IMG/VR virus record: IMGVR_UViG_2756170264_000002
Span: 1,506 to 65,505 of that record
Strand: one strand, 5' to 3'
Origin: a virus
DNA: 64,000 bases
Position 1 is the first letter of the stretch; each line of letters starts with the position of its first letter. This document shows positions 5,232 through 20,681 of this stretch, one piece after another. A program made the position numbers and the translations under genes. The notes under the pieces are model-generated. The model was given only the letters and a program-made list of their open reading frames with translations. It ran no database searches and had not been told where the DNA came from.

Positions 5232-5690
5232 GTGTTTGAAATGGACATTGGAGAAAAAACAAAACAAATTCTTTTAAAAATTGGCTTTAATCCTGCCACA
5301 AAAGGATTTAGATATATCTGTGATGCGATTGCTTTATTAGATGAAGCGGACGGCAATGGAAAGACAATAGGTTTATACAATGCAATAGCTAAAAAGAACA
5401 ATGATACTTATTCAAGGGTCGAAAGAGCAATCAAGCACGCTTTTGATAGTGTAATCGAAAAAGGCAGTAATTTGAATATGGTAAATAAGTATTTAACAAC
5501 TGTATATACAAGTAATTCAGCTTTGCTTCATACACTCTGGATTAATATTCAAGAAGAGATTAAAGAGGAACAATCCGGATTAAATCATAATACTGATCGA
5601 TGCGAAACAGAAACAATAACAATTAACAAACAAGTGCTTAAGTCTGTAATAAATATGTTAGAAAAGGAGCTAGAAAACTATGGTAATTAA
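5232..5690 (+). CDS. Spo0A C-terminal (DNA-binding) domain protein lacking a receiver domain
   Basis: IGFNPATKGFRYICDAI and LYNAIAKKNNDTYSRVERAIKHA match Spo0A_C motifs (IKGYxYLREAI; LYPxIAKKYNTTxSRVERAIRHA). Confidence 0.85.
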   Translation: MFEMDIGEKTKQILLKIGFNPATKGFRYICDAIALLDEADGNGKTIGLYNAIAKKNNDTYSRVERAIKHAFDSVIEKGSNLNMVNKYLTTVYTSNSALLHTLWINIQEEIKEEQSGLNHNTDRCETETITINKQVLKSVINMLEKELENYGN

Positions 5691-7623
5691 ATTAAAGAAA
5701 CTTACAATGCAGAATTTTAAGTGTTATGAGAACTTCACAATAAATTTTTCTGACACAGTAACAAAAATCAGTGGCAAGAATGAAGAGGGAAAAACTACCA
5801 TTGAAGATGCAGTAAATTGGGTTCTTTTCAACAAGCTTGCAGACGGTACCAAGGCGGATAAAATCAGACCGCATGATGAAAACGGCGTTGATATTGATTT
5901 TGTTGAAATTCTTATTGAACTGGATATGGAAGTGGATAAAAGACCTCTGAATATTATTAAAACTCAAAATCAAGATTGGGTTACGAGAAGAGGCGAAACA
6001 GAGAAGTACTTTAAGGGAAATACCAATGGCTACATTGTAAATGGTACTCCAAAGAGTGAAACAGAGTTCAAGAAGTTCTTTTCAGAAATTATTGACGAGG
6101 AACTTTTCAAATTCACTACCAACGCAAATGCTTTTTTGAAGTTGAAAACAGAAGATAGACGAAAGAAGTTATTTGAGTTGATTTCAGACAAAACAGATGC
6201 TGATGTTATTAATCCTAAGTTTGAAGAATTAAGAGAGTTGTTTGAATCAAAAAGTATTGATGATCTGATAAGTGAAAGTAATTTCGCCCTAAGGGGTAAT
6301 GGAAAAACCAACAAAGGTTACAAGGGCGAAATTGATGATATCCCAACCGAAATCAACGCTATTAGCAAGCTAAAAGTGAGTGTTGATGTATCTGACTTGG
6401 AATTACAGAAAAACGCCTTAAAAGAACAAATTGCAGAAATTGAAAAACAGGAAGAGGATAACGAAAAGGCTTTTGAAGAGTTTAGCAAGTTTTCTGATGA
6501 TATTATGCAATTGAAATTTAAGCAAAGTGATATTGAAAGAGCGGCATATGAAGAATTAAACAGTCAGAAGAGAGAAATTCAAAAGAAAATTGATGAAGCT
6601 GACCGAGGATTTAAAGATACTTTTTCAAGACACAGTAACATTGAAATGGATATCAAGAGATTACAGGATAATATTGAGCGTAAAGATGCAGAACGTAAAC
6701 AATTAGGTGTTGAATACAAGGAATTTCAAAGTAAAGTTTTTGATGAAAATACACTGATTTGCTCCATGTGTGGACAGGAATTTCCCGAAGAAAAATCGGC
6801 AGGGTATAGAGAGGATTTCGAGACTAAAAAGAGTAATGGACTTGCTTTGATGTATGAAAGAGGAATGAAATTAAAGGCTGAAATTGAAAAGCATAAAGAA
6901 GAACTTGCTACATATGAGAAACAGTTAGAATCACTTAAAGAAGAAAAAATAAAGTTCAATGCTGAAAAGGGAAAGGCAATGGAAGAACTCGCAAAACTTC
7001 CACAACAAGCTGACCTGTCAACAAATCAAGAATACGAAGCCTTGACTGCTGAAATTGCAAAAAAAGAAGAATCTTTGAAATCAATGAATAGCGGTGCTGA
7101 TTATCGCAAGCAGTTAAAAGTCAAAAAGGATGAATTGAAAGAGGAACTAGATTCCGTAAATACTCAAATATCCAAAGCCGATAATTCCAAAATCGAGGAA
7201 GAGATTGAAAGATACAAGGCTCGTCACAAAGAGGTTGTCCAGTTGGCTGCTAACGAAGAAAAGAAGTTGATGCTTTATGAAGATTTCAAAAAGGCAAAGA
7301 TTGATTTGCTAACTGATGAGGTAAACAAGCACTTCTCAATTATTAAATGGAGATTGTTTGAAAAGAATATCCAAGCAGAGGGATATAAAAATATTTGTGA
7401 ACCTACATATAAAGGTACTTTGTACGGAAATGGATTAAATGCAGGTCACAAAATCCTTATTGAAATGGATATTATCAATACACTGCAGAAGATTAATAAT
7501 GTGTCAGTACCAGTGTTCCTTGATAATGCAGAGAGATTAAGCACAGAGAATATTCCTAGCATGGATAGCCAGTTAATTGTTTTGAAAGTATCTGATGATA
7601 AATTGAAAGTGGAGGGCGAATAG
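5680..7623 (+). CDS. SMC/Rad50-like AAA ATPase of recombination module
   Basis: Walker A GKNEEGKTT, long coiled coil, central CxxC (CSMCGQ), C-terminal LNAG and FLDNAE. Confidence 0.88.
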   Translation: MVIKLKKLTMQNFKCYENFTINFSDTVTKISGKNEEGKTTIEDAVNWVLFNKLADGTKADKIRPHDENGVDIDFVEILIELDMEVDKRPLNIIKTQNQDWVTRRGETEKYFKGNTNGYIVNGTPKSETEFKKFFSEIIDEELFKFTTNANAFLKLKTEDRRKKLFELISDKTDADVINPKFEELRELFESKSIDDLISESNFALRGNGKTNKGYKGEIDDIPTEINAISKLKVSVDVSDLELQKNALKEQIAEIEKQEEDNEKAFEEFSKFSDDIMQLKFKQSDIERAAYEELNSQKREIQKKIDEADRGFKDTFSRHSNIEMDIKRLQDNIERKDAERKQLGVEYKEFQSKVFDENTLICSMCGQEFPEEKSAGYREDFETKKSNGLALMYERGMKLKAEIEKHKEELATYEKQLESLKEEKIKFNAEKGKAMEELAKLPQQADLSTNQEYEALTAEIAKKEESLKSMNSGADYRKQLKVKKDELKEELDSVNTQISKADNSKIEEEIERYKARHKEVVQLAANEEKKLMLYEDFKKAKIDLLTDEVNKHFSIIKWRLFEKNIQAEGYKNICEPTYKGTLYGNGLNAGHKILIEMDIINTLQKINNVSVPVFLDNAERLSTENIPSMDSQLIVLKVSDDKLKVEGE

Positions 7624-8885: not shown

Positions 8886-9213
8886 TTATGAAAAAGATTT
8901 ACTTTCCAAAATTGACAGTGGAGATAGATTGTCGGAACGAGAATTGAAAATGCTGGCTCTTGAATTTGATATTGAGCGTATTGAGGGAGGTAACCGCAGA
9001 TGGCAAAGAGAAGTTCGTTCAATATGTCAGTTAGGTGAAAGGACGTTTGCTGTTGACTGGCAGGAGGGATTAACAGAGTGCCAAGAAAATGAGTTTTGGG
9101 AACAACCAATTGAAGTTGTTAAAATTGAGCGCGAAAAGACAATTAATGTAATTGAATGGATTAAGAAAGTCGAGGTAGATGAAAATGGCAAATCAATTAA
9201 CAGTAACAAATAA
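8878..9213 (+). CDS. Hypothetical phage protein
   Basis: AAGGAG RBS, overlapping stop/start. Confidence 0.7.
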   Translation: MSDYEKDLLSKIDSGDRLSERELKMLALEFDIERIEGGNRRWQREVRSICQLGERTFAVDWQEGLTECQENEFWEQPIEVVKIEREKTINVIEWIKKVEVDENGKSINSNK

Positions 9214-10090
9214 AACAATCGAACAGCTAACTGTTCAGCTAGAAGAAAAAGAAAAGAAAGGCTTAAAATTTCCAACAAACTATAGTGTCCAGAACGCCAT
9301 GAATTCGGCTTACTTAATGCTTAAAGAAGCAGAGGACAAGAATCATAATCCTTTATTGGAAGTGTGTACACAGGAAAGTGTAATTCAATCACTTATGCAG
9401 ATGGCTACACAAGGTTTAAACCCAGTAAAAAAACAGTGCTATTTTGTGGCTTATGGAAAGAAATGTACCTTAGTTCCATCATATTTCGGAACATTGGCAA
9501 TGCTCAATCGTGTTAAGAGCCTAAAACGTCAACCAGTAGCAAATGTAGTAAGACAAGGTGATATATTTGAATATGGATATGACTTGGAAAATGACGGAGA
9601 AATGGTAATTTATAAGCATGAAACAAAGCTTGAGAATCTTAATAATCCAATAATTGCAGCATATGCAATAATTTCAACGGACAAAGAAAAAGTTGTTGAG
9701 ATTATGTCTAAAAATGAAATTGAAAGTGCTTGGGCGCAGGGGCAGTCATGGAAATCTGCTAAAAAGAACGGATATGAATCAGCAACTCATAAGAACTTTC
9801 CGGAAGAAATGGCAAAGAAAACAGTTCTTAATCGTGCTTCAAAACGTCTTATTAATGCCACCGATGATAGTTCAATTATGGGTGACGATTTCTTGCAATC
9901 ATTCAATGAAACTAGCGATAATGACAAATTAGATATTGTTGCTGAAAATGTTGCTGTTGAGATTGAGGAAAAAGCCAACGCCGAAGTATTTCAAGAAGCA
10001 GAAGCGGAAGAACCAGTGCAGGAGCAGGAAGTTGTTGAAACCGAAGTGATTCAGGAATCAGGAGATATCGAACCAGATTTCATGAAATAG
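9185..10090 (+). CDS. recT: RecT-family ssDNA-annealing recombinase
   Basis: SVIQSLMQMATQGLNPVKKQCYFVAYG, SYFG, FPEEMAKKTVLNRASK. Confidence 0.93.
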   Translation: MANQLTVTNKTIEQLTVQLEEKEKKGLKFPTNYSVQNAMNSAYLMLKEAEDKNHNPLLEVCTQESVIQSLMQMATQGLNPVKKQCYFVAYGKKCTLVPSYFGTLAMLNRVKSLKRQPVANVVRQGDIFEYGYDLENDGEMVIYKHETKLENLNNPIIAAYAIISTDKEKVVEIMSKNEIESAWAQGQSWKSAKKNGYESATHKNFPEEMAKKTVLNRASKRLINATDDSSIMGDDFLQSFNETSDNDKLDIVAENVAVEIEEKANAEVFQEAEAEEPVQEQEVVETEVIQESGDIEPDFMK

Positions 10091-10371: not shown

Positions 10372-10556
10372 AAAAAGGTGGACTACTAGAACGTTTCACA
10401 AAGAAACAAGACGGTGTATGTGCCACATGTGCAAATTTAATTGATATTGATTCAGAGCTTGCCTATGGCTGTGAAGCACACGACAAATTTATATTAAAGG
10501 CATTTCCACCGTACCACACGGAGCGTATTAAGTGCAAGGATTGGAAAGAGAGGTAA
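10368..10556 (+). CDS. Small Cys-rich hypothetical protein
   Basis: CATC..CEAH..CKDW; ATGA overlap. Confidence 0.6.
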   Translation: MKKGGLLERFTKKQDGVCATCANLIDIDSELAYGCEAHDKFILKAFPPYHTERIKCKDWKER

Positions 10557-10558
10557 AT

Positions 10559-10882
10559 ATGGAAGAGATTAAAGCATATAAACCTAAGTGTTGCAGTAAA
10601 GCATATATGACTAAAAGTGGTGCAAGGAAACATAAAAAGAAGTGTTTTAAAAATCCAGACAATAAAGCCTGCCTTACATGCAAATATTTTATAAAAGATT
10701 ATAATACTGTCTATGTTCCACCGAGAGGAGATAGTAATTACGGTGATGATGATTACGAAGAACCTTATTATTTCTGCGATTTTGACGGTAAAACACTTAT
10801 GTCTGTCCATATTAAACCAATGAAACTGGAAAAACATTATCAATCAGAATGCGAACATTGGGAATTGAAAGAGGGTGATTAA
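10559..10882 (+). CDS. Cys-rich hypothetical protein
   Basis: GAGGT RBS; several Cys/His pairs. Confidence 0.6.
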   Translation: MEEIKAYKPKCCSKAYMTKSGARKHKKKCFKNPDNKACLTCKYFIKDYNTVYVPPRGDSNYGDDDYEEPYYFCDFDGKTLMSVHIKPMKLEKHYQSECEHWELKEGD

Positions 10883-11614
10883 ATGTTTTTGAGGGTAATA
10901 AATAGCGGTAGTAGTGGCAATGGCTATATTCTGCAAGATGATAAAGAAGCCTTGATAATTGAAGCAGGTTGTAAGTTATTAGATATTAAAAAAGCCTTGG
11001 ATTTCAACATATCAAAAGTTGTTGGCTGTCTAGTTTCTCACGAACATGGTTAAGGTGACCATGCCAAGTACATAACAGATTATATGAAAGTTGGTATCGA
11101 AGTTTACACAAGTGATGAAACACAAGAGCATCTTGAAATTACAACTGGTGAATATGCAAGGTCTATGATGCCTAATAAGGCTTATAAGATTGGAAATTTC
11201 ATTATTCAGCCTTTTGAATTAATACATGATGTTCCTTGCCTTGGCTTCTATATTAGACATTATGAAATAGGCAAATTGTTATTCATAACTGATACGGAGT
11301 ATGTGCCACAAAATTTTAGTAGCCTTAAATCGAACCATATTCTAGTTGAAGTTAACTATGATAAAGATTTGATGTGTAATGAGGATTTTAAAAGAAATCA
11401 TGTTCTGACAGGTCATATGTGCATTGATACCACTTGTGAGTTCCTTATGAAGAATGATAATCCAAACTTGATGAATGTTGTGTTATTACATTTATCAGAT
11501 TCAAATTCCGATTCGGAGAAATTTCTTCAAAAGACAAAAGAGATAGTTCGCTGTGATTGCTATATTGCAGATAAGGGACTGGAAGTAAATTTAAACTTAA
11601 TACCGTTTATGTGA
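10883..11614 (+). CDS. MBL-fold metallo-hydrolase (RecT-associated nuclease) with in-frame TAA at 11051-11053
   Basis: MFLRVINSGSSGNGY...VSHEHG*GDHAKY...HDVPCLGF...FITDT...LLHLS; both halves in one frame; recoded or pseudogene. Confidence 0.88.
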
Positions 11615-12052: not shown

Positions 12053-12475
12053 ATGATGCAAGTTAAATTAGAAGAGTTAGTTGATGGAGCATTACAGGAA
12101 AATGCAAGTAAGGCAATTGAGGAAGTGGTTAAGAACATGCAGGATCCGAACACTCCATGGAAGAACAAAAGAGAGGTTACAATCAAGCTGAAATTTACCC
12201 AAAATGAAGAAAGAAACGATTCAAACTGCGAGATTTCAGTTGATAAAAAACTTGCACCTGTTAAGCCAATTGAAACACGTTTTGCTATTGGAAAAGACCT
12301 TAAAACAGGTCAAGTTTATGCAGAAGAGTATGGCAGACAAATAAGAGGTCAAATGTCCATAGAAGATGTTCAGGCAGCAGCCAAAGAGGTTGTCATTGAT
12401 GGCAAAGAAGTAGATACCGAAACAGGTGAGATTAAAAATGAAACTGTAGTTGATTTTAAGGCAAAACAAGCCTAA
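12053..12475 (+). CDS. Conserved Firmicute phage protein (so-called replication terminator protein family)
   Basis: GALQE...VVKNMQDPNTPWKNKREVTIKLKF pattern. Confidence 0.7.
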   Translation: MMQVKLEELVDGALQENASKAIEEVVKNMQDPNTPWKNKREVTIKLKFTQNEERNDSNCEISVDKKLAPVKPIETRFAIGKDLKTGQVYAEEYGRQIRGQMSIEDVQAAAKEVVIDGKEVDTETGEIKNETVVDFKAKQA

Positions 12476-12494
12476 GAAAATGGAGGAAAAGAAG

Positions 12495-13205
12495 ATGATT
12501 AAAGAAGCACTAAAATATGTAGTTGGATTAAGTGTGCCGGTTGTACAAGAAATTAAAGGACAGCAGTATTCTGATAAGCAACTTCACAGAATCAATCACA
12601 ACCCACAGGCATCCTCTATACAGATGGGAACATTAACAAGTTTTGTTGACTATATTAGAGCCAACATTGACAGCATGAGCGATAAAATGATTGTTCATGT
12701 AGAAAGTCCAACTAAAGTGTCTTTGTATTCCCAATTGGACGCTGAACGTGAAAGAGAATACCTTGTAAACGTAGTTGCAAGAGTGCCAGAGTTTCGTTTT
12801 AACCAGTTCATTGACCATGAAGAATTTTTGATTAATCTTCAATCTAAATTCATTGATTCAGGTGATAGAGGATTGGTTCTTAAATTCGCTGGAACTGTTG
12901 AAGATAAAAGCGTGGCAGAGTATGGGGACGATGGAGTTACGCAAAAAGCTACAGTTAAAAATGGAATTGCAAGTAAAACAGAAGCTATTATTCCTAACCC
13001 AGTTAATCTTGCTCCATACAGAACTTTCTTAGAAGTAGCACAACCTCTTTCGGATTTCGTATTCAGAATGAAATCAGAGCGCGGAATCCAATGTGCAATT
13101 TTTGAAGCTGATGGCGGTGCATGGAAGAATGAAGCAATGCAGAATATCAAAAATTATTTGAGAGACGAGTTAGAGGATTTGGATCAGTTCACAGTAATAT
13201 CCTAG
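12495..13205 (+). CDS. Conserved phage protein, partner of preceding gene
   Basis: PNPVNLAPYRTFLEVAQP, FEADGGAWKNEA motifs; GGAGG RBS. Confidence 0.75.
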   Translation: MIKEALKYVVGLSVPVVQEIKGQQYSDKQLHRINHNPQASSIQMGTLTSFVDYIRANIDSMSDKMIVHVESPTKVSLYSQLDAEREREYLVNVVARVPEFRFNQFIDHEEFLINLQSKFIDSGDRGLVLKFAGTVEDKSVAEYGDDGVTQKATVKNGIASKTEAIIPNPVNLAPYRTFLEVAQPLSDFVFRMKSERGIQCAIFEADGGAWKNEAMQNIKNYLRDELEDLDQFTVIS

Positions 13206-13569: not shown

Positions 13570-14169
13570 GTGACATTACTTGAAGATATAGGAAACAAAG
13601 AAAATCAGCACAGAACTAAAAACCGATACTGGCAGAGTCAAGGAATTGAAGTTATTCGAGCTCCTTTACCAGTTGGTGATTATATACTTGCAAATGAGAA
13701 AGTAAATGATGTTATGAATCGTAAAGCAGGCAGGGGAATAGACATCAAAAAGATGGATTTTGTTGGTACATATTCCATAGCTGTGGATACAAAAAAAGAT
13801 ATCGAGGAAGTGGTTGGCAATATTTGTGGTAAGGCACACGCAAGGTTCCGTGATGAATGTATTCTTGCACAAAATAATGGAATTAAACTTTATGTGTTAG
13901 TAGAAAATTTAGACGGCGTGACTTGCATCAATAATTTGTATGAATGGAATAATCCACGCTTACATAATTACAACAAGATTGCTTACATGCATAGCATTGG
14001 GAAGTGGTTAAGTAGAAAACTTCCAAAGGCAAAGCCAACAAGTGGCATTACACTGGCAAAATCAATGGGGACTATGCAGCATAAGTATGGCGTAGAATTT
14101 ATATTTTGTAAGCCGCATGAAGCAGGAAAAAAAGTACTTGATCTGTTAGGTGGTGAAATAAATGAGTAG
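13570..14169 (+). CDS. ERCC4-like nuclease (putative junction resolvase)
   Basis: APLPVGDY, AVDTKKDIEE, ARFRDEC...LYVLVE. Confidence 0.75.
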   Translation: MTLLEDIGNKENQHRTKNRYWQSQGIEVIRAPLPVGDYILANEKVNDVMNRKAGRGIDIKKMDFVGTYSIAVDTKKDIEEVVGNICGKAHARFRDECILAQNNGIKLYVLVENLDGVTCINNLYEWNNPRLHNYNKIAYMHSIGKWLSRKLPKAKPTSGITLAKSMGTMQHKYGVEFIFCKPHEAGKKVLDLLGGEINE

Positions 14170-15210: not shown

Positions 15211-17715
15211 ATGAATTATAAAGAGTTTTTGTACAGCAAGGTAGAACTTGTTTTCGATAGCGGATTTGACATTGATGTGTCGAAGATTAATAAAGCCTTA
15301 AAGCCACATCAAAAAGATGCAGTTGCGTGGGCAATTAAAGGCGGCAAGCGAGCCTTATTTGAATCATTTGGACTTGGAAAAACTATACAAGAAATAGAAT
15401 TTTGCTATCAGGTCATTAAACACGAGGGTGGAAATGCACTAATCGTTTTACCACTTGGAGTTAAGCAAGAATTTACAAGAGATGCAGTTGGGGTACTTGG
15501 GTACGATATGCCTTTATATGTGAGAAACATGCAAGAGGTAGAATCTGCAAATACAGATATCATGATTACGAATTATGAAAGAGTACGTGATGGAGATATC
15601 CGGCCAGAATATTTCACAGCAACTTCTTTGGATGAAGCCAGTGTTTTAAGGAGTTTCGGAAGTAAGACTTATCAAACTTTCTTGGATAAATTTAAAGGTG
15701 TTAAATATAAATTAGTTGCTACGGCCACACCGTCACCGAACCGATACAAGGAGCTAATCCACTATGCCGGATATTTAGAGGTTATGGACACCGGACAGGC
15801 ATTAACAAGATTTTTTCAAAGAGATTCTACAAAAGCAAATAATTTAACTTTATATCCAAATCAGGAAGATGAATTTTGGTTATGGGTAAGTAGTTGGGCG
15901 TTATTTGTAACGAAACCTTCAGACTTGAATCAGAAGTATTCAGATGCAGGTTATGATTTACCACCATTACAGGTTAATTGGCATGAGATACCAGTTGAGT
16001 ACGGCAACTCAACAGATAAGTATGGACAAGTTCAGTTGTTTCAAGAAGCAGCAGCAGGATTAAAAGATGCAGCAGCAGTTAAGAGGGAAAGTATTGATAT
16101 TAGAATTGCTAAATTGAAAGAAATTGTTGAGCAAAGCAATGGAGATAGTTTTATTCTTTGGCATGACCTCGAAGCGGAACGTCTGGCCATAAAGAAAGCC
16201 ATTCCAGAAACCGTTGATATATTCGGCTCACAGGATTATGAAATCAGGGAAAAAAGAGTTATTGATTTTTCAGAGGGAAGAACTAGACTGTTTGCAACTA
16301 AGAAAGAATTATCAGGATCCGGATGCAATTTTCAAAAACATTGCCACAGAGCAATATTCGTTGGTATTGATTACGAATTTAATGATTTTATTCAGGCAAT
16401 ACATAGGATTTACCGATTCTTGCAAACTGAAAAAGTAATCATAGATATTATCTATATGGAGAATGAAGAGAATATAAAAAATGTTTTGCTAGAAAAATGG
16501 AAAAATCATAACCACATGGTGCAAAAGATGATAGAAATTGTAAAGCAATATGGTCTAAATTCTCCAAATAAAGTAGAAAGATTAAAGAGAAAGATGGGTG
16601 TAGAAACAGTGAAAGTACAAGGACAATATTACACGGCCGTACTGGATGATTGTGTGGAGGAAACTAAAAGAATGCAAGAAAACAGTATTGACCTTATTCA
16701 TACATCAATTCCATTCGGAAATCATTATGAATATTCCGCAAATTATAATGACTTTGGCCATAATCAAAATACGGAGAAATTCTTTGAACAAATGAATTTT
16801 CTTACACCGCAACTTCTTAGAATTTTAAGGCCGGGAAGAGTTGCAGCTATTCATGTTAAGGACCGTGTATTATTTGGAAATGCTACCGGTACCGGAATGC
16901 CAACAATTGAACCTTTTCATTCCGATTGTATCAGGCATTATATGAAACATGGATTTATGTACTTTGGAATGATTACGATTCTTACTGATGTTGTAAGAGA
17001 AAATAATCAAACGTACCGCCTTGGATGGTCTGAACAGTGCAAAGATGGTTCCAAAATGGGGGTTGGTTGCCCTGAATATATATTACTTTTCAGAAAGCTT
17101 CCTACGGACCGTTCAAATGCATATGCGGATGAACCGGTATCAAAAACCAAGGAAGATTACACAAGGGCACAATGGCAGATAGATGCTCATGGATACTGGA
17201 GAAGCAGTGGTGATAGGTTGATAAGTAAAGAAGAAATTGAAAATATTCCTGTAGACAAATTACAGAGTGTTTACAGAATCTATTCAAGGGAAAGTATTTA
17301 CAACTATCAGGAGCATGTTGAACTTGCTAAAAAGCTAGATAAAAATGGGAAATTACCAGCAACGTTCATGGTTGTTGCTCCTGGTTCATGGAATACATTA
17401 GAGGTTTGGGACGATATTAACCGAATGAAAACCTTGAATACACAGCAGAGCCGCAGACGACAACAAATGCATGTATGCCCTTTGCAGATTGATATAGTTG
17501 AGAGAATTATTAACAGATATTCCAATGAGGGCGATTTGGTATTAGACCCTTTTGGTGGACTTATGACGGTACCTATGACAGCAGTTAAAATGAAGCGTAG
17601 AGGGTATGGGATTGAGTTAAACGAGGATTATTTCAGAGATGGTGTTGGGTACCTGCAGTCTGCGGAAAATGAAATAAGCGTACCTACATTATTTGATTTT
17701 ATGGGAGGTGCTTAA
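15211..17715 (+). CDS. SNF2-like helicase / amino-methyltransferase (N6_N4_Mtase) fusion
   Basis: FGLGKT, LDEAS, SGCNFQ in N-half; TSIPF and VLDPFGG in C-half. Confidence 0.88.
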   Translation: MNYKEFLYSKVELVFDSGFDIDVSKINKALKPHQKDAVAWAIKGGKRALFESFGLGKTIQEIEFCYQVIKHEGGNALIVLPLGVKQEFTRDAVGVLGYDMPLYVRNMQEVESANTDIMITNYERVRDGDIRPEYFTATSLDEASVLRSFGSKTYQTFLDKFKGVKYKLVATATPSPNRYKELIHYAGYLEVMDTGQALTRFFQRDSTKANNLTLYPNQEDEFWLWVSSWALFVTKPSDLNQKYSDAGYDLPPLQVNWHEIPVEYGNSTDKYGQVQLFQEAAAGLKDAAAVKRESIDIRIAKLKEIVEQSNGDSFILWHDLEAERLAIKKAIPETVDIFGSQDYEIREKRVIDFSEGRTRLFATKKELSGSGCNFQKHCHRAIFVGIDYEFNDFIQAIHRIYRFLQTEKVIIDIIYMENEENIKNVLLEKWKNHNHMVQKMIEIVKQYGLNSPNKVERLKRKMGVETVKVQGQYYTAVLDDCVEETKRMQENSIDLIHTSIPFGNHYEYSANYNDFGHNQNTEKFFEQMNFLTPQLLRILRPGRVAAIHVKDRVLFGNATGTGMPTIEPFHSDCIRHYMKHGFMYFGMITILTDVVRENNQTYRLGWSEQCKDGSKMGVGCPEYILLFRKLPTDRSNAYADEPVSKTKEDYTRAQWQIDAHGYWRSSGDRLISKEEIENIPVDKLQSVYRIYSRESIYNYQEHVELAKKLDKNGKLPATFMVVAPGSWNTLEVWDDINRMKTLNTQQSRRRQQMHVCPLQIDIVERIINRYSNEGDLVLDPFGGLMTVPMTAVKMKRRGYGIELNEDYFRDGVGYLQSAENEISVPTLFDFMGGA

Positions 17716-19307: not shown

Positions 19308-20681
19308 GTGGCAGATCTAATCGAAACGCAAATGAATGTGATAGGCTCCTTGTTTATTGATATTGACTATAGCATTAAGAAAGTATATACAAGGCTAAAG
19401 CCTGAACACTTTACACATACAAAGCTTAAAAAAGTTTATGCAACCGTTCAGGAACTGTATACTTTGGGAAAGCCTATTGATGTACAATCAGTTGCCAATC
19501 ATGCAAGAACAAAAGACATAACAGAGTTAGAACTAAGCGAAATACTTAGAAAATGTGTATTGTCAACTCCTACAACAGTAAATATTGAGTATCATGCAAA
19601 TGAACTAATTGACAATTATAAATCAAGATTACTACGAAATATTGTATCAGATGCAAGTGTAGCGGATGAACGAAATGTGAATGAGGTCATTGGAGAAACA
19701 ATCAATAAATTATCTGAATTGGCAGCAGACAGGAAAACAACATCTAAAACCCTGAAAGAGATATACGAGGAAAACAAGCACAAATATTTCAATGAAAATT
19801 ACGATCCTGAATATTTAAACCTTGGGTTTGATGATATTGATAGAATGCTTAGTGGAATTGAAGATACTGACCTTGTATGTATTGCTGCTAGACCTAGTAT
19901 AGGAAAATCGGCTTTTGTTACGCAAATAGCCTATAGCAAGGCAAAACAGGGCAGAAAAACAATGTTTTATAACCTAGAAATGAATGATAAACAGGTTATT
20001 GACAGAATACTATGTTCGGAAACAAAGATACCATTTGACAGAATAAGGCACGCTAAGAAATTTATGAGTGACGAAGAATTGCGATTTCGAGATGCAGAAA
20101 GTAAATTTCTTAATTGCGAGAATCTAATTATTGATGATTGCGGAACCAAAACGGTAAGAGAAATTAGAAACGAGTGCAAATACATTGATAACCTAGGGTT
20201 AATAATAATTGATTACCTGCAATTACTTAAACCTGATAAGGGCAGAAATGGAAACAAGGTACAGGAAATTGGTGATATAAGTAGAGGTTTAAAAGCAATG
20301 GCAATGGAGTTGAAAGTACCAGTAATAGCTTTATCTCAAATGAGTAGAAGTATTGAGGGTAGACCAGATAAAGAACCAGTATTGGCAGATTTACGAGAAA
20401 GTGGAGATATTGAGCAAGATTGTAATTCTGTAATTTTCCTTTATGAAGCTTTTGACGGTGGCAACAATCTAATTAAAGATTTGAGAAACGTTAAAGTTGC
20501 AAAAAGCCGACAAGGTGAAACAGGTAAAACTAAGATTGGATTCATGGGAAAATTAATGACTTTCTATTCCTTGGACAAGACAAACATACAGAAAAGTATT
20601 GAAGCAGTTGAGAAATCAAGTGAGTCACGAGATGGATTTATGGTACTTGATAGTAATACAAGATTACCATGGGAGGAGTGA
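19308..20681 (+). CDS. dnaB: DnaB-like replicative helicase
   Basis: AARPSIGKS Walker A, IIIDYLQL, LSQMSR, DLRESGDIEQD, VAKSRQG. Confidence 0.95.
   Translation: MADLIETQMNVIGSLFIDIDYSIKKVYTRLKPEHFTHTKLKKVYATVQELYTLGKPIDVQSVANHARTKDITELELSEILRKCVLSTPTTVNIEYHANELIDNYKSRLLRNIVSDASVADERNVNEVIGETINKLSELAADRKTTSKTLKEIYEENKHKYFNENYDPEYLNLGFDDIDRMLSGIEDTDLVCIAARPSIGKSAFVTQIAYSKAKQGRKTMFYNLEMNDKQVIDRILCSETKIPFDRIRHAKKFMSDEELRFRDAESKFLNCENLIIDDCGTKTVREIRNECKYIDNLGLIIIDYLQLLKPDKGRNGNKVQEIGDISRGLKAMAMELKVPVIALSQMSRSIEGRPDKEPVLADLRESGDIEQDCNSVIFLYEAFDGGNNLIKDLRNVKVAKSRQGETGKTKIGFMGKLMTFYSLDKTNIQKSIEAVEKSSESRDGFMVLDSNTRLPWEE

Follow-up and report, generated by a model that had tools for sequence, protein, structure and literature searches.

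An MBL-fold gene in the 64,000-nt stretch analyzed here (the window) carries a stop codon inside its catalytic motif, and its best reading is a programmed stop-hop that would yield a 241-aa phosphodiesterase, with a probability of roughly 0.7 on the evidence of sequence comparison. Gaps directly after the same codon were identified in 85 further loci under strong purifying selection, so that ribosomes most likely hop across them. The core proposal of the first-pass annotation, a programmed hop from a GGT codon over TAA to a matched GGT, is therefore retained, since the matched codons of the relatives, the selection on the gene, and the recurrence of the gap all agree with it.

The frame extends on the plus strand from ATG 10883 to TGA 11612-11614 and is open except for a single TAA at 11051-11053, leaving both halves in one frame with intact motifs as originally described. 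Codons 53-60 read CAC GAA CAT GGT TAA GGT GAC CAT (H-E-H-G-stop-G-D-H), and the stop is indeed flanked by identical GGT codons (11048-11050 and 11054-11056) within the HxHxDH motif. The DNA as written breaks this motif with the stop, and the canonical HxHxDH spacing is obtained in the window only if six bases are skipped. The joined translation then comprises 56 + 185 = 241 residues with HEHGDH, the product that had been predicted for a GGT to GGT hop. Alignment with 20 uninterrupted homologues (54-75% identity) placed gaps in all 20 at the columns of the stop and the second Gly, and the window therefore contains a 6-nt insertion. The uninterrupted homologues in this alignment (n = 20) read HxH-x-DH, and the x position of intact genes is occupied by K, G, Q, N, F, A, M, or L. 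The motif constrains every residue but x, which leaves the take-off codon free to change.

Table 1. Positions of the interrupted MBL gene, its local signals, and neighboring genes in the window.
Feature	Position	Strand	Basis or remark
AAA_15/AAA_23 ATPase	5680-7623		
RecT-family annealing protein	9179-10090	+	PF03837, E 2.5e-39
Upstream ORF, 116 aa, Cys/His-rich	10532-10882	+	Adjoins the MBL ATG
Mosaic block common to the window and L022	10866-11156	+	Identity profile
Coding segment 1 (codons 1-56, ending ...S-H-E-H-G)	10883-11050	+	Lactamase_B, E 0.005
Predicted hairpin	11045-11063	+	8-bp stem, 3-nt loop, dG -8.3 kcal/mol, z -2.45 versus shuffles
Take-off codon GGT (Gly56), variable x of HxH-x-DH	11048-11050	+	Sequence
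6-nt coding gap (TAA 11051-11053 and landing GGT 11054-11056)	11051-11056	+	Sequence, homologue alignment
Coding segment 2 (GAC CAT = motif D-H; 185 codons; TGA 11612-11614)	11057-11614	+	Lactamase_B_2
ERCC4-domain protein	13570-14169		
SNF2-methylase fusion	15211-17715		
DnaB helicase	19308-20681		

The read-through translation matched phrog_392 "metal-dependent hydrolase" (E 1.4e-65) and scored 26.7 bits against PF12706, just below the cut-off of 27 that intact homologues pass, with Lactamase_B covering residues 10-55 and Lactamase_B_2 the rest. A sequence search of the PDB returned weak RNase J and MBL matches only, and no NCBIfam family scored over its cut-off. The structure was modeled for P0004, an intact homologue with 73% identity to the read-through translation (pLDDT 90.8), and its nearest structures were Bacillus subtilis YhfI, a Bacillus anthracis ElaC homologue, RNase Z, Apyc1, and PhnP. 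In the model the motif occupies the loop that connects a strand (residues 46-50) to a helix (56-59), and the downstream His/Asp/His ligands were conserved in the homologue alignment. Judged by this model, the enzyme belongs to the phosphodiesterase branch of the MBL fold and may act on DNA, RNA, or a cyclic nucleotide; the RecT partner nuclease of the first-pass annotation is accordingly a conjecture.

The window is a prophage region in a 4.86-Mb genome of 34.6% GC, the RpoB of which is 90% identical to that of Anaerosacchariphilus polymeriproducens (Lachnospiraceae). The region around the MBL gene is a phage replication/recombination module (Table 1), and the recurrence of RecT and SSB genes beside the MBL gene in relatives favors a role in DNA metabolism, without proving one. 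Two overlapping plus-strand ORFs at 12053-12475 (phrog_997, 'replication terminator') and 12450-13205 (phrog_1029) were kept as a pair in L022, an interrupted relative from a bovine gut metagenome. The gene at 15211-17715 encodes an 834-aa fusion of an SNF2-related helicase domain and an N6/N4 DNA methylase domain.

Scans for the pattern in IMG/VR and representative genomes, plus look-ups of 55-56-aa N-terminal fragments, identified 86 interrupted loci (the window and 85 others) with ten gap forms, the gap always directly following the same x codon; 12 clusters of such N-terminal fragments stop at this codon. The host bacteria of the gapped phages belong to the Bacillota and Bacteroidota, including Lachnospiraceae and Leyella (Prevotellaceae). 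With the gap given in square brackets after the take-off codon, the +6 arrangements were GGT[TAA GGT] in the window and L022, GGT[TGA GGT] in L342, GGA[TAA GGA] in nine loci including Leyella stercorea An906, GGT[TAA GGA] in 15 loci including a Lachnospiraceae MAG, GGT[TAA GGC] in one locus (L026), and GGT[TGA GGC] in four. A +5 gap, GGT[TA GGA] or GGT[TA GGC], was found in 48 loci, a +9 gap, TCT[TAG TGG TCT], in three, and single loci had a +8 gap, CTT[TGAGG CTC], a +1 gap, CTT[T] or CUU-UGA (L052), and an unmatched +5 gap, TCA[TAGCT] (L053).

All 86 interrupted loci have a stop codon right behind the take-off codon, and the landing codon fits the take-off tRNA in nine gap forms, the exception being L053. 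The take-off/landing pairs (GGT/GGT, GGA/GGA, GGT/GGA, GGT/GGC, TCT/TCT, and CTT/CTC) covary as Gly/Gly, Ser/Ser, and Leu/Leu; because the bases between the matched codons are unrelated to the flanks, simple duplication fails to explain the match. Past the gap, all contigs of sufficient length retained an open, homologous frame through to its end, and about 70 complete interrupted loci contained no further stop or indel. The nine codons S-H-E-H-G-stop-G-D-H were base-invariant in group B, in which most flanking codons vary. When the middle codon of the pattern was left free, the gene family displayed TAA (25 loci) or TGA (4 loci) only and no sense codon at this position. Matches of the same scan with sense codons in genome contigs were unrelated high-GC DNA, none of the MBL family, and L256 was discarded as a chance pattern match.

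In the tree of joined proteins the interrupted genes required at least four state changes, of which at least two were forced by well-supported branches, and one well-supported clade contained three gap forms, suggesting that the gaps evolve in place and also move or arise repeatedly. Blastn of the MBL gene against 50,697 GenBank phage records gave no match. Among 201 host-family genomes, a single intact homologue turned up, the distant G098 (39% identity), the other matches being housekeeping MBL genes. Two of the rarer forms deserve separate mention. The L052 site (L052:1060-1095) has CUU-UGA followed by AUCAU, where the +1 frame gives L-D-H back and no obvious upstream Shine-Dalgarno stimulator was seen. 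The L053 site (L053:1660-1680) reads TCA[TAGCT]GAC, a Ser take-off codon without a matching landing codon but with an intact downstream frame of 176 codons; this gene falls in a clade with +6 forms, and either its landing is tolerant or its mechanism is another.

Selection was estimated as dN/dS within groups whose members are all interrupted. Group B gave 0.10 for the N-terminal and 0.13 for the C-terminal half (dS up to 1.25), group C gave 0.18 and 0.06, and the +5 group (24 distinct genes) gave 0.09 and, in the shifted frame, 0.11, compared to 1.12 for the wrong-frame control. For the lineage of the window, selection was judged from the comparisons with L342 (N-half 0.05 at dS 1.65; C-half 0.14) and with L022 (C-half 0.18). 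The window and L342 both keep GGT..GGT despite saturated synonymous sites (dS 1.65), the stop being TAA in the former and TGA in the latter. The first-pass annotation had reasoned that a conserved GGN-stop-GGN with purifying selection on both sides would support a hop, and that a unique insertion followed by a drifting downstream half would speak against it. The relatives keep GGN-stop-GGN with both halves constrained, and a unique insertion with downstream drift is contradicted by 85 other gapped loci and their constrained C-halves.

The gap is not an assembly error. The junction was base-for-base identical on L022, a 16.6-kb contig, and recurred without indel in a third study, on a contig of 151 nt; this comparison concerned assembled contigs from three assemblies, in which minority molecules lacking the six bases would escape notice. 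Sequencing error and random lesion, which had been argued against from the local sequence, are thus dismissed on firmer grounds, namely the same junction in three assemblies and the 85 other gapped loci. The similarity to L022 was confined to a block of about 290 bp (10866-11156 in the window and 5783-6073 in L022) that starts at the MBL ribosome-binding site. Identity was about 99% from some 18 nt before the ATG to some 40 nt past the gap (the first ~250 bp) and lower beyond, and the flanks of the block were diverged, such that the N-half had a dS of 0.03 between the two and the C-half a dS of 1.06-1.08. On this identity profile the block is a recombinational mosaic that stems from a recent exchange between otherwise diverged phages. 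Its 5' edge was sharp and coincided with the place where relatives have an HNH gene. The C-half of the window clustered with uninterrupted genes, a resemblance brought about by recombination, and selection on the window copy since it gained the gap is therefore weakly documented.

In the proposed mechanism, the ribosome would translate codons 1-56 and hold peptidyl-tRNA-Gly on GGU (11048-11050) in the P site with UAA in the A site. In some ribosomes the tRNA would release GGU before the release factor acts and re-pair six bases further on with a second, identical GGU (11054-11056), and decoding would restart at GAC CAU to produce the motif HEHGDH. Re-pairing at the second GGU would mean that nine bases specify one glycine. 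Other ribosomes would terminate and leave a 56-aa fragment. All gap forms fit this re-pairing of a P-site peptidyl-tRNA with a stop in the A site, suggesting one mechanism. The hop itself, its efficiency, and any stimulating role of the local hairpin are what we infer from these patterns. UAA before a G terminates well in Escherichia coli and is no obviously weak stop. The synthetic stop-hops of Weiss and coworkers from 1987 are said to have been inefficient, so the natural yield may be small. The host genome encodes tRNA-Gly(GCC) and tRNA-Gly(UCC) in two copies each. The hop predicts the tryptic junction peptide VVGCLVSHEHGDHAK, compared to VVGCLVSHEHG-X-GDHAK for readthrough.

Decoding of UAA by a near-cognate tRNA would instead give a 243-aa protein with HEHG-X-GDH, and the shared frame of the window halves, together with the low-level readthrough that occurs at any stop codon, would permit it. 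The first-pass annotation held that this product would break the motif spacing, and indeed H-x-H-x-x-x-D-H was found in no homologue. No relative has a sense codon in the middle of the gap, and no tRNA with a stop anticodon (suppressor) was detected in the genome or the window. The TAA is also an ordinary stop here, as the upstream neighbor ORF ends in it, and neither reassignment of TAA nor its suppressor decoding was indicated. Moreover, the +5, +8, and +1 forms shift the frame and therefore cannot be rescued by readthrough, yet the +5 gaps of close relatives are under selection; readthrough is accordingly an improbable source of the enzyme. A dead or dispensable gene, with the gap as a scar or endonuclease-immunity insert, no active product, and frames kept intact by recent recombination with functional copies, would accommodate the recently exchanged N-half block and the grouping of the window C-half with uninterrupted genes. 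It would also suit the minority status of the interrupted alleles, the 80 best IMG/VR relatives all being intact. This explanation is nevertheless unlikely given the clades made up entirely of interrupted genes, where both halves have dN/dS of 0.06-0.18 at dS up to 1.2-1.8, and given the absence of further lesions in the complete loci, the wrong-frame control, and the covarying take-off and landing codons. At the sequence level, the selection, covariation, middle-codon, frame, and code tests together exclude a drifting pseudogene, and the same five argue against readthrough.

Removal of the six bases before translation, by RNA processing or, in a subpopulation, by loss of DNA between the two GGT repeats, was also considered, as 3-nt direct repeats could in principle allow slippage and the gap was examined in contigs only. 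It is very unlikely: three independent assemblies keep the gap without indel, we know of no mechanism for RNA excision of 5-9 nt, deletion is not frequent at repeats as short as 3 nt, and the +1 form CUU-UGA is the classic ribosomal shift site of prfB. An enzyme assembled non-covalently from two pieces, the 56-aa N-fragment and a C-fragment with its own initiation, has a parallel in the T4 topoisomerase, which works with separate gp39 and gp60 chains. However, the window offers no in-frame start from the stop to Met67 (11084), GTG 11055 and ATG 11061 being out of frame, and a fragment beginning at Met67 would be devoid of the motif Asp-His. Group B has no Met at that place, yet its codons directly after the gap are invariant, and such a split enzyme is hardly credible. 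The preferred reading, a hop by the ribosome, is followed below.

The hairpin that the first-pass annotation drew from CATGGT/ACCATG at 11045-11063 folds as predicted, with the take-off GGT and some of the TAA in the 5' arm and the landing codon in the loop and 3' arm. The codons for His-Gly...Asp-His force part of this pairing, and the structure that thus includes the take-off codon is found in some lineages only: groups A, C, D, and the +5 form possess a local hairpin (-9 to -12 kcal/mol for the counterparts in groups C and D), group B has a weak one, and the +9, +8, +1, and unmatched forms have none. One RNA structure common to all gap forms was sought and not found. The codon for the second His (His55) was CAT in 44 of 49 distinct interrupted contexts compared to 16 of 43 uninterrupted ones, and CAT here completes the CAUGG/CCAUG pairing; as the contexts come from related sequences, this bias is only a hint. 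Strong hairpins of 9-12 bp with a 3' arm ending at the take-off codon were observed in L023, L025, and L029 (group B), L051, and L052, and those of group B, L051, and L052, some 30 nt before take-off, recall the proposed forward-driving 5' stem-loop of T4 gene 60. The peptide preceding take-off (VVGCLVSHEHG) is a conserved MBL strand plus motif, in which a nascent signal is inseparable by sequence from the constraint on the enzyme.

Stop-hops with matched codons flanking a stop have been demonstrated in synthetic E. coli constructs, with no natural case known as of a 2016 review (PMC5009743), and +5 and +6 events occurred in the E. coli reporters of Weiss, Dunn, Atkins, and Gesteland in 1987, as summarized there (PMC5009743). 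The MBL sites share with these constructs the matched or synonymous codons around the stop, the use of nine bases for one amino acid, and the re-pairing downstream of a P-site peptidyl-tRNA with a slow-to-decode stop in the A site; the +5 and +6 geometries of the relatives are likewise those of the synthetic events. The synthetic sites were engineered, whereas the MBL site is natural, conserved in phages of two bacterial phyla, and restores a catalytic motif. With the +1 frameshift of prfB (RF2) the hop has in common an A-site stop that lets the P-site tRNA re-pair, and L052 has CUU-UGA at the same codon. The prfB event differs in being a +1 shift rather than a +6 move to a non-overlapping codon, and the window displays neither an upstream Shine-Dalgarno stimulator nor an autoregulatory logic. 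The byps of Magnusiomyces capitatus are 27-55 nt long, mitochondrial, and present in many genes, while the gaps described here are of 1-9 nt at one codon of one bacterial-virus gene family. These byps are many short coding inserts skipped via matched take-off and landing codons (PMC5009743).

The nearest parallel is T4 gene 60, with its bypass efficiency of about 50% and an insert that protects against MobA and persists after loss of the endonuclease gene (bioRxiv 10.1101/2022.08.31.505936). Both systems have a Gly take-off codon followed by a stop, a matched landing codon, an insert in highly conserved coding DNA, and an HNH gene adjoining the interrupted gene, for MBL in the relatives; a stem-loop with the take-off codon is predicted for the window as well, in part forced by coding and lacking in some gap forms. 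They differ in gap length (50 nt compared to 6 nt), share no sequence similarity, and no nascent-peptide signal is known for the MBL gene. Gene 60 encodes a topoisomerase and has a MobA cassette, whereas the window has an MBL hydrolase gene and no endonuclease gene. Searches of the full-text literature revealed no report of bypassing in an MBL gene. Bypassing has so far rested on one bacterial case (T4 gene 60 and homologues) plus the yeast mitochondrial byps, and the MBL family would add dozens of natural hop sites that differ in gap length, take-off tRNA, stop, and flanking structure, which would open the rules for take-off and landing to direct tests. It would also mean that gene callers split or drop a functional gene in numerous phages of the gut and rumen.

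A connection with homing endonucleases was displayed by the relatives. Of the 74 interrupted loci with upstream DNA, 20 had an ORF with NUMOD4-HNH_3-NUMOD1 domains that stopped no more than 3 nt from the start of the MBL gene, and none of about 80 intact ones did (Fisher 1e-7, with loci that are related rather than independent); examples are L029:6287-6868, L034:3623-4204, and L348:633-1208, besides 17 further loci. A smaller count gave HNH in 3 of 97 immediate neighbor ORFs compared to 0 of 94, numbers from which nothing can be concluded. Between L029 (group B) and L348 (+5), whose MBL genes are far apart, the HNH proteins were 48% identical. No HNH homologue was found in the window or its genome. 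The ORF at 10532-10882 sits where relatives carry the HNH gene, had no Pfam or PHROG match, and was not HNH by any search; it contains CCSKAY...CFKNPDNKACLTCKYF, and L022 has another gene at this position.

As the gap often lies beside an HNH gene in relatives, it likely originated as in T4 gene 60: the insert would spoil the endonuclease target at the best conserved stretch of the gene and be tolerated since ribosomes skip it, and in the window the endonuclease gene would have gone and left the gap alone. Such an origin in immunity to an endonuclease, alternative or additional to dose limiting, is probable from the relatives, with no trace of it in the window, and the purpose of the gap may be dose control, a relic of this immunity, or both. 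Homing endonucleases may thus drive the birth of recoding sites. More broadly, we lean toward the view that bacterial ribosomes of at least two phyla naturally and routinely perform short stop-hops (+5, +6, +8, and +9) for a phage gene, the gaps being an evolving family that was started by an HNH homing endonuclease and destroys the target of that enzyme. If true, the MBL family would be the first stop-hop system known from nature and would provide the gene 60 logic with a second, independent case. The gene directly upstream of the interrupted MBL gene encoded a C-5 cytosine DNA methyltransferase in group C and the +9 form (L026:5614-6270, L028, L030, L032, and L048:560-1162).
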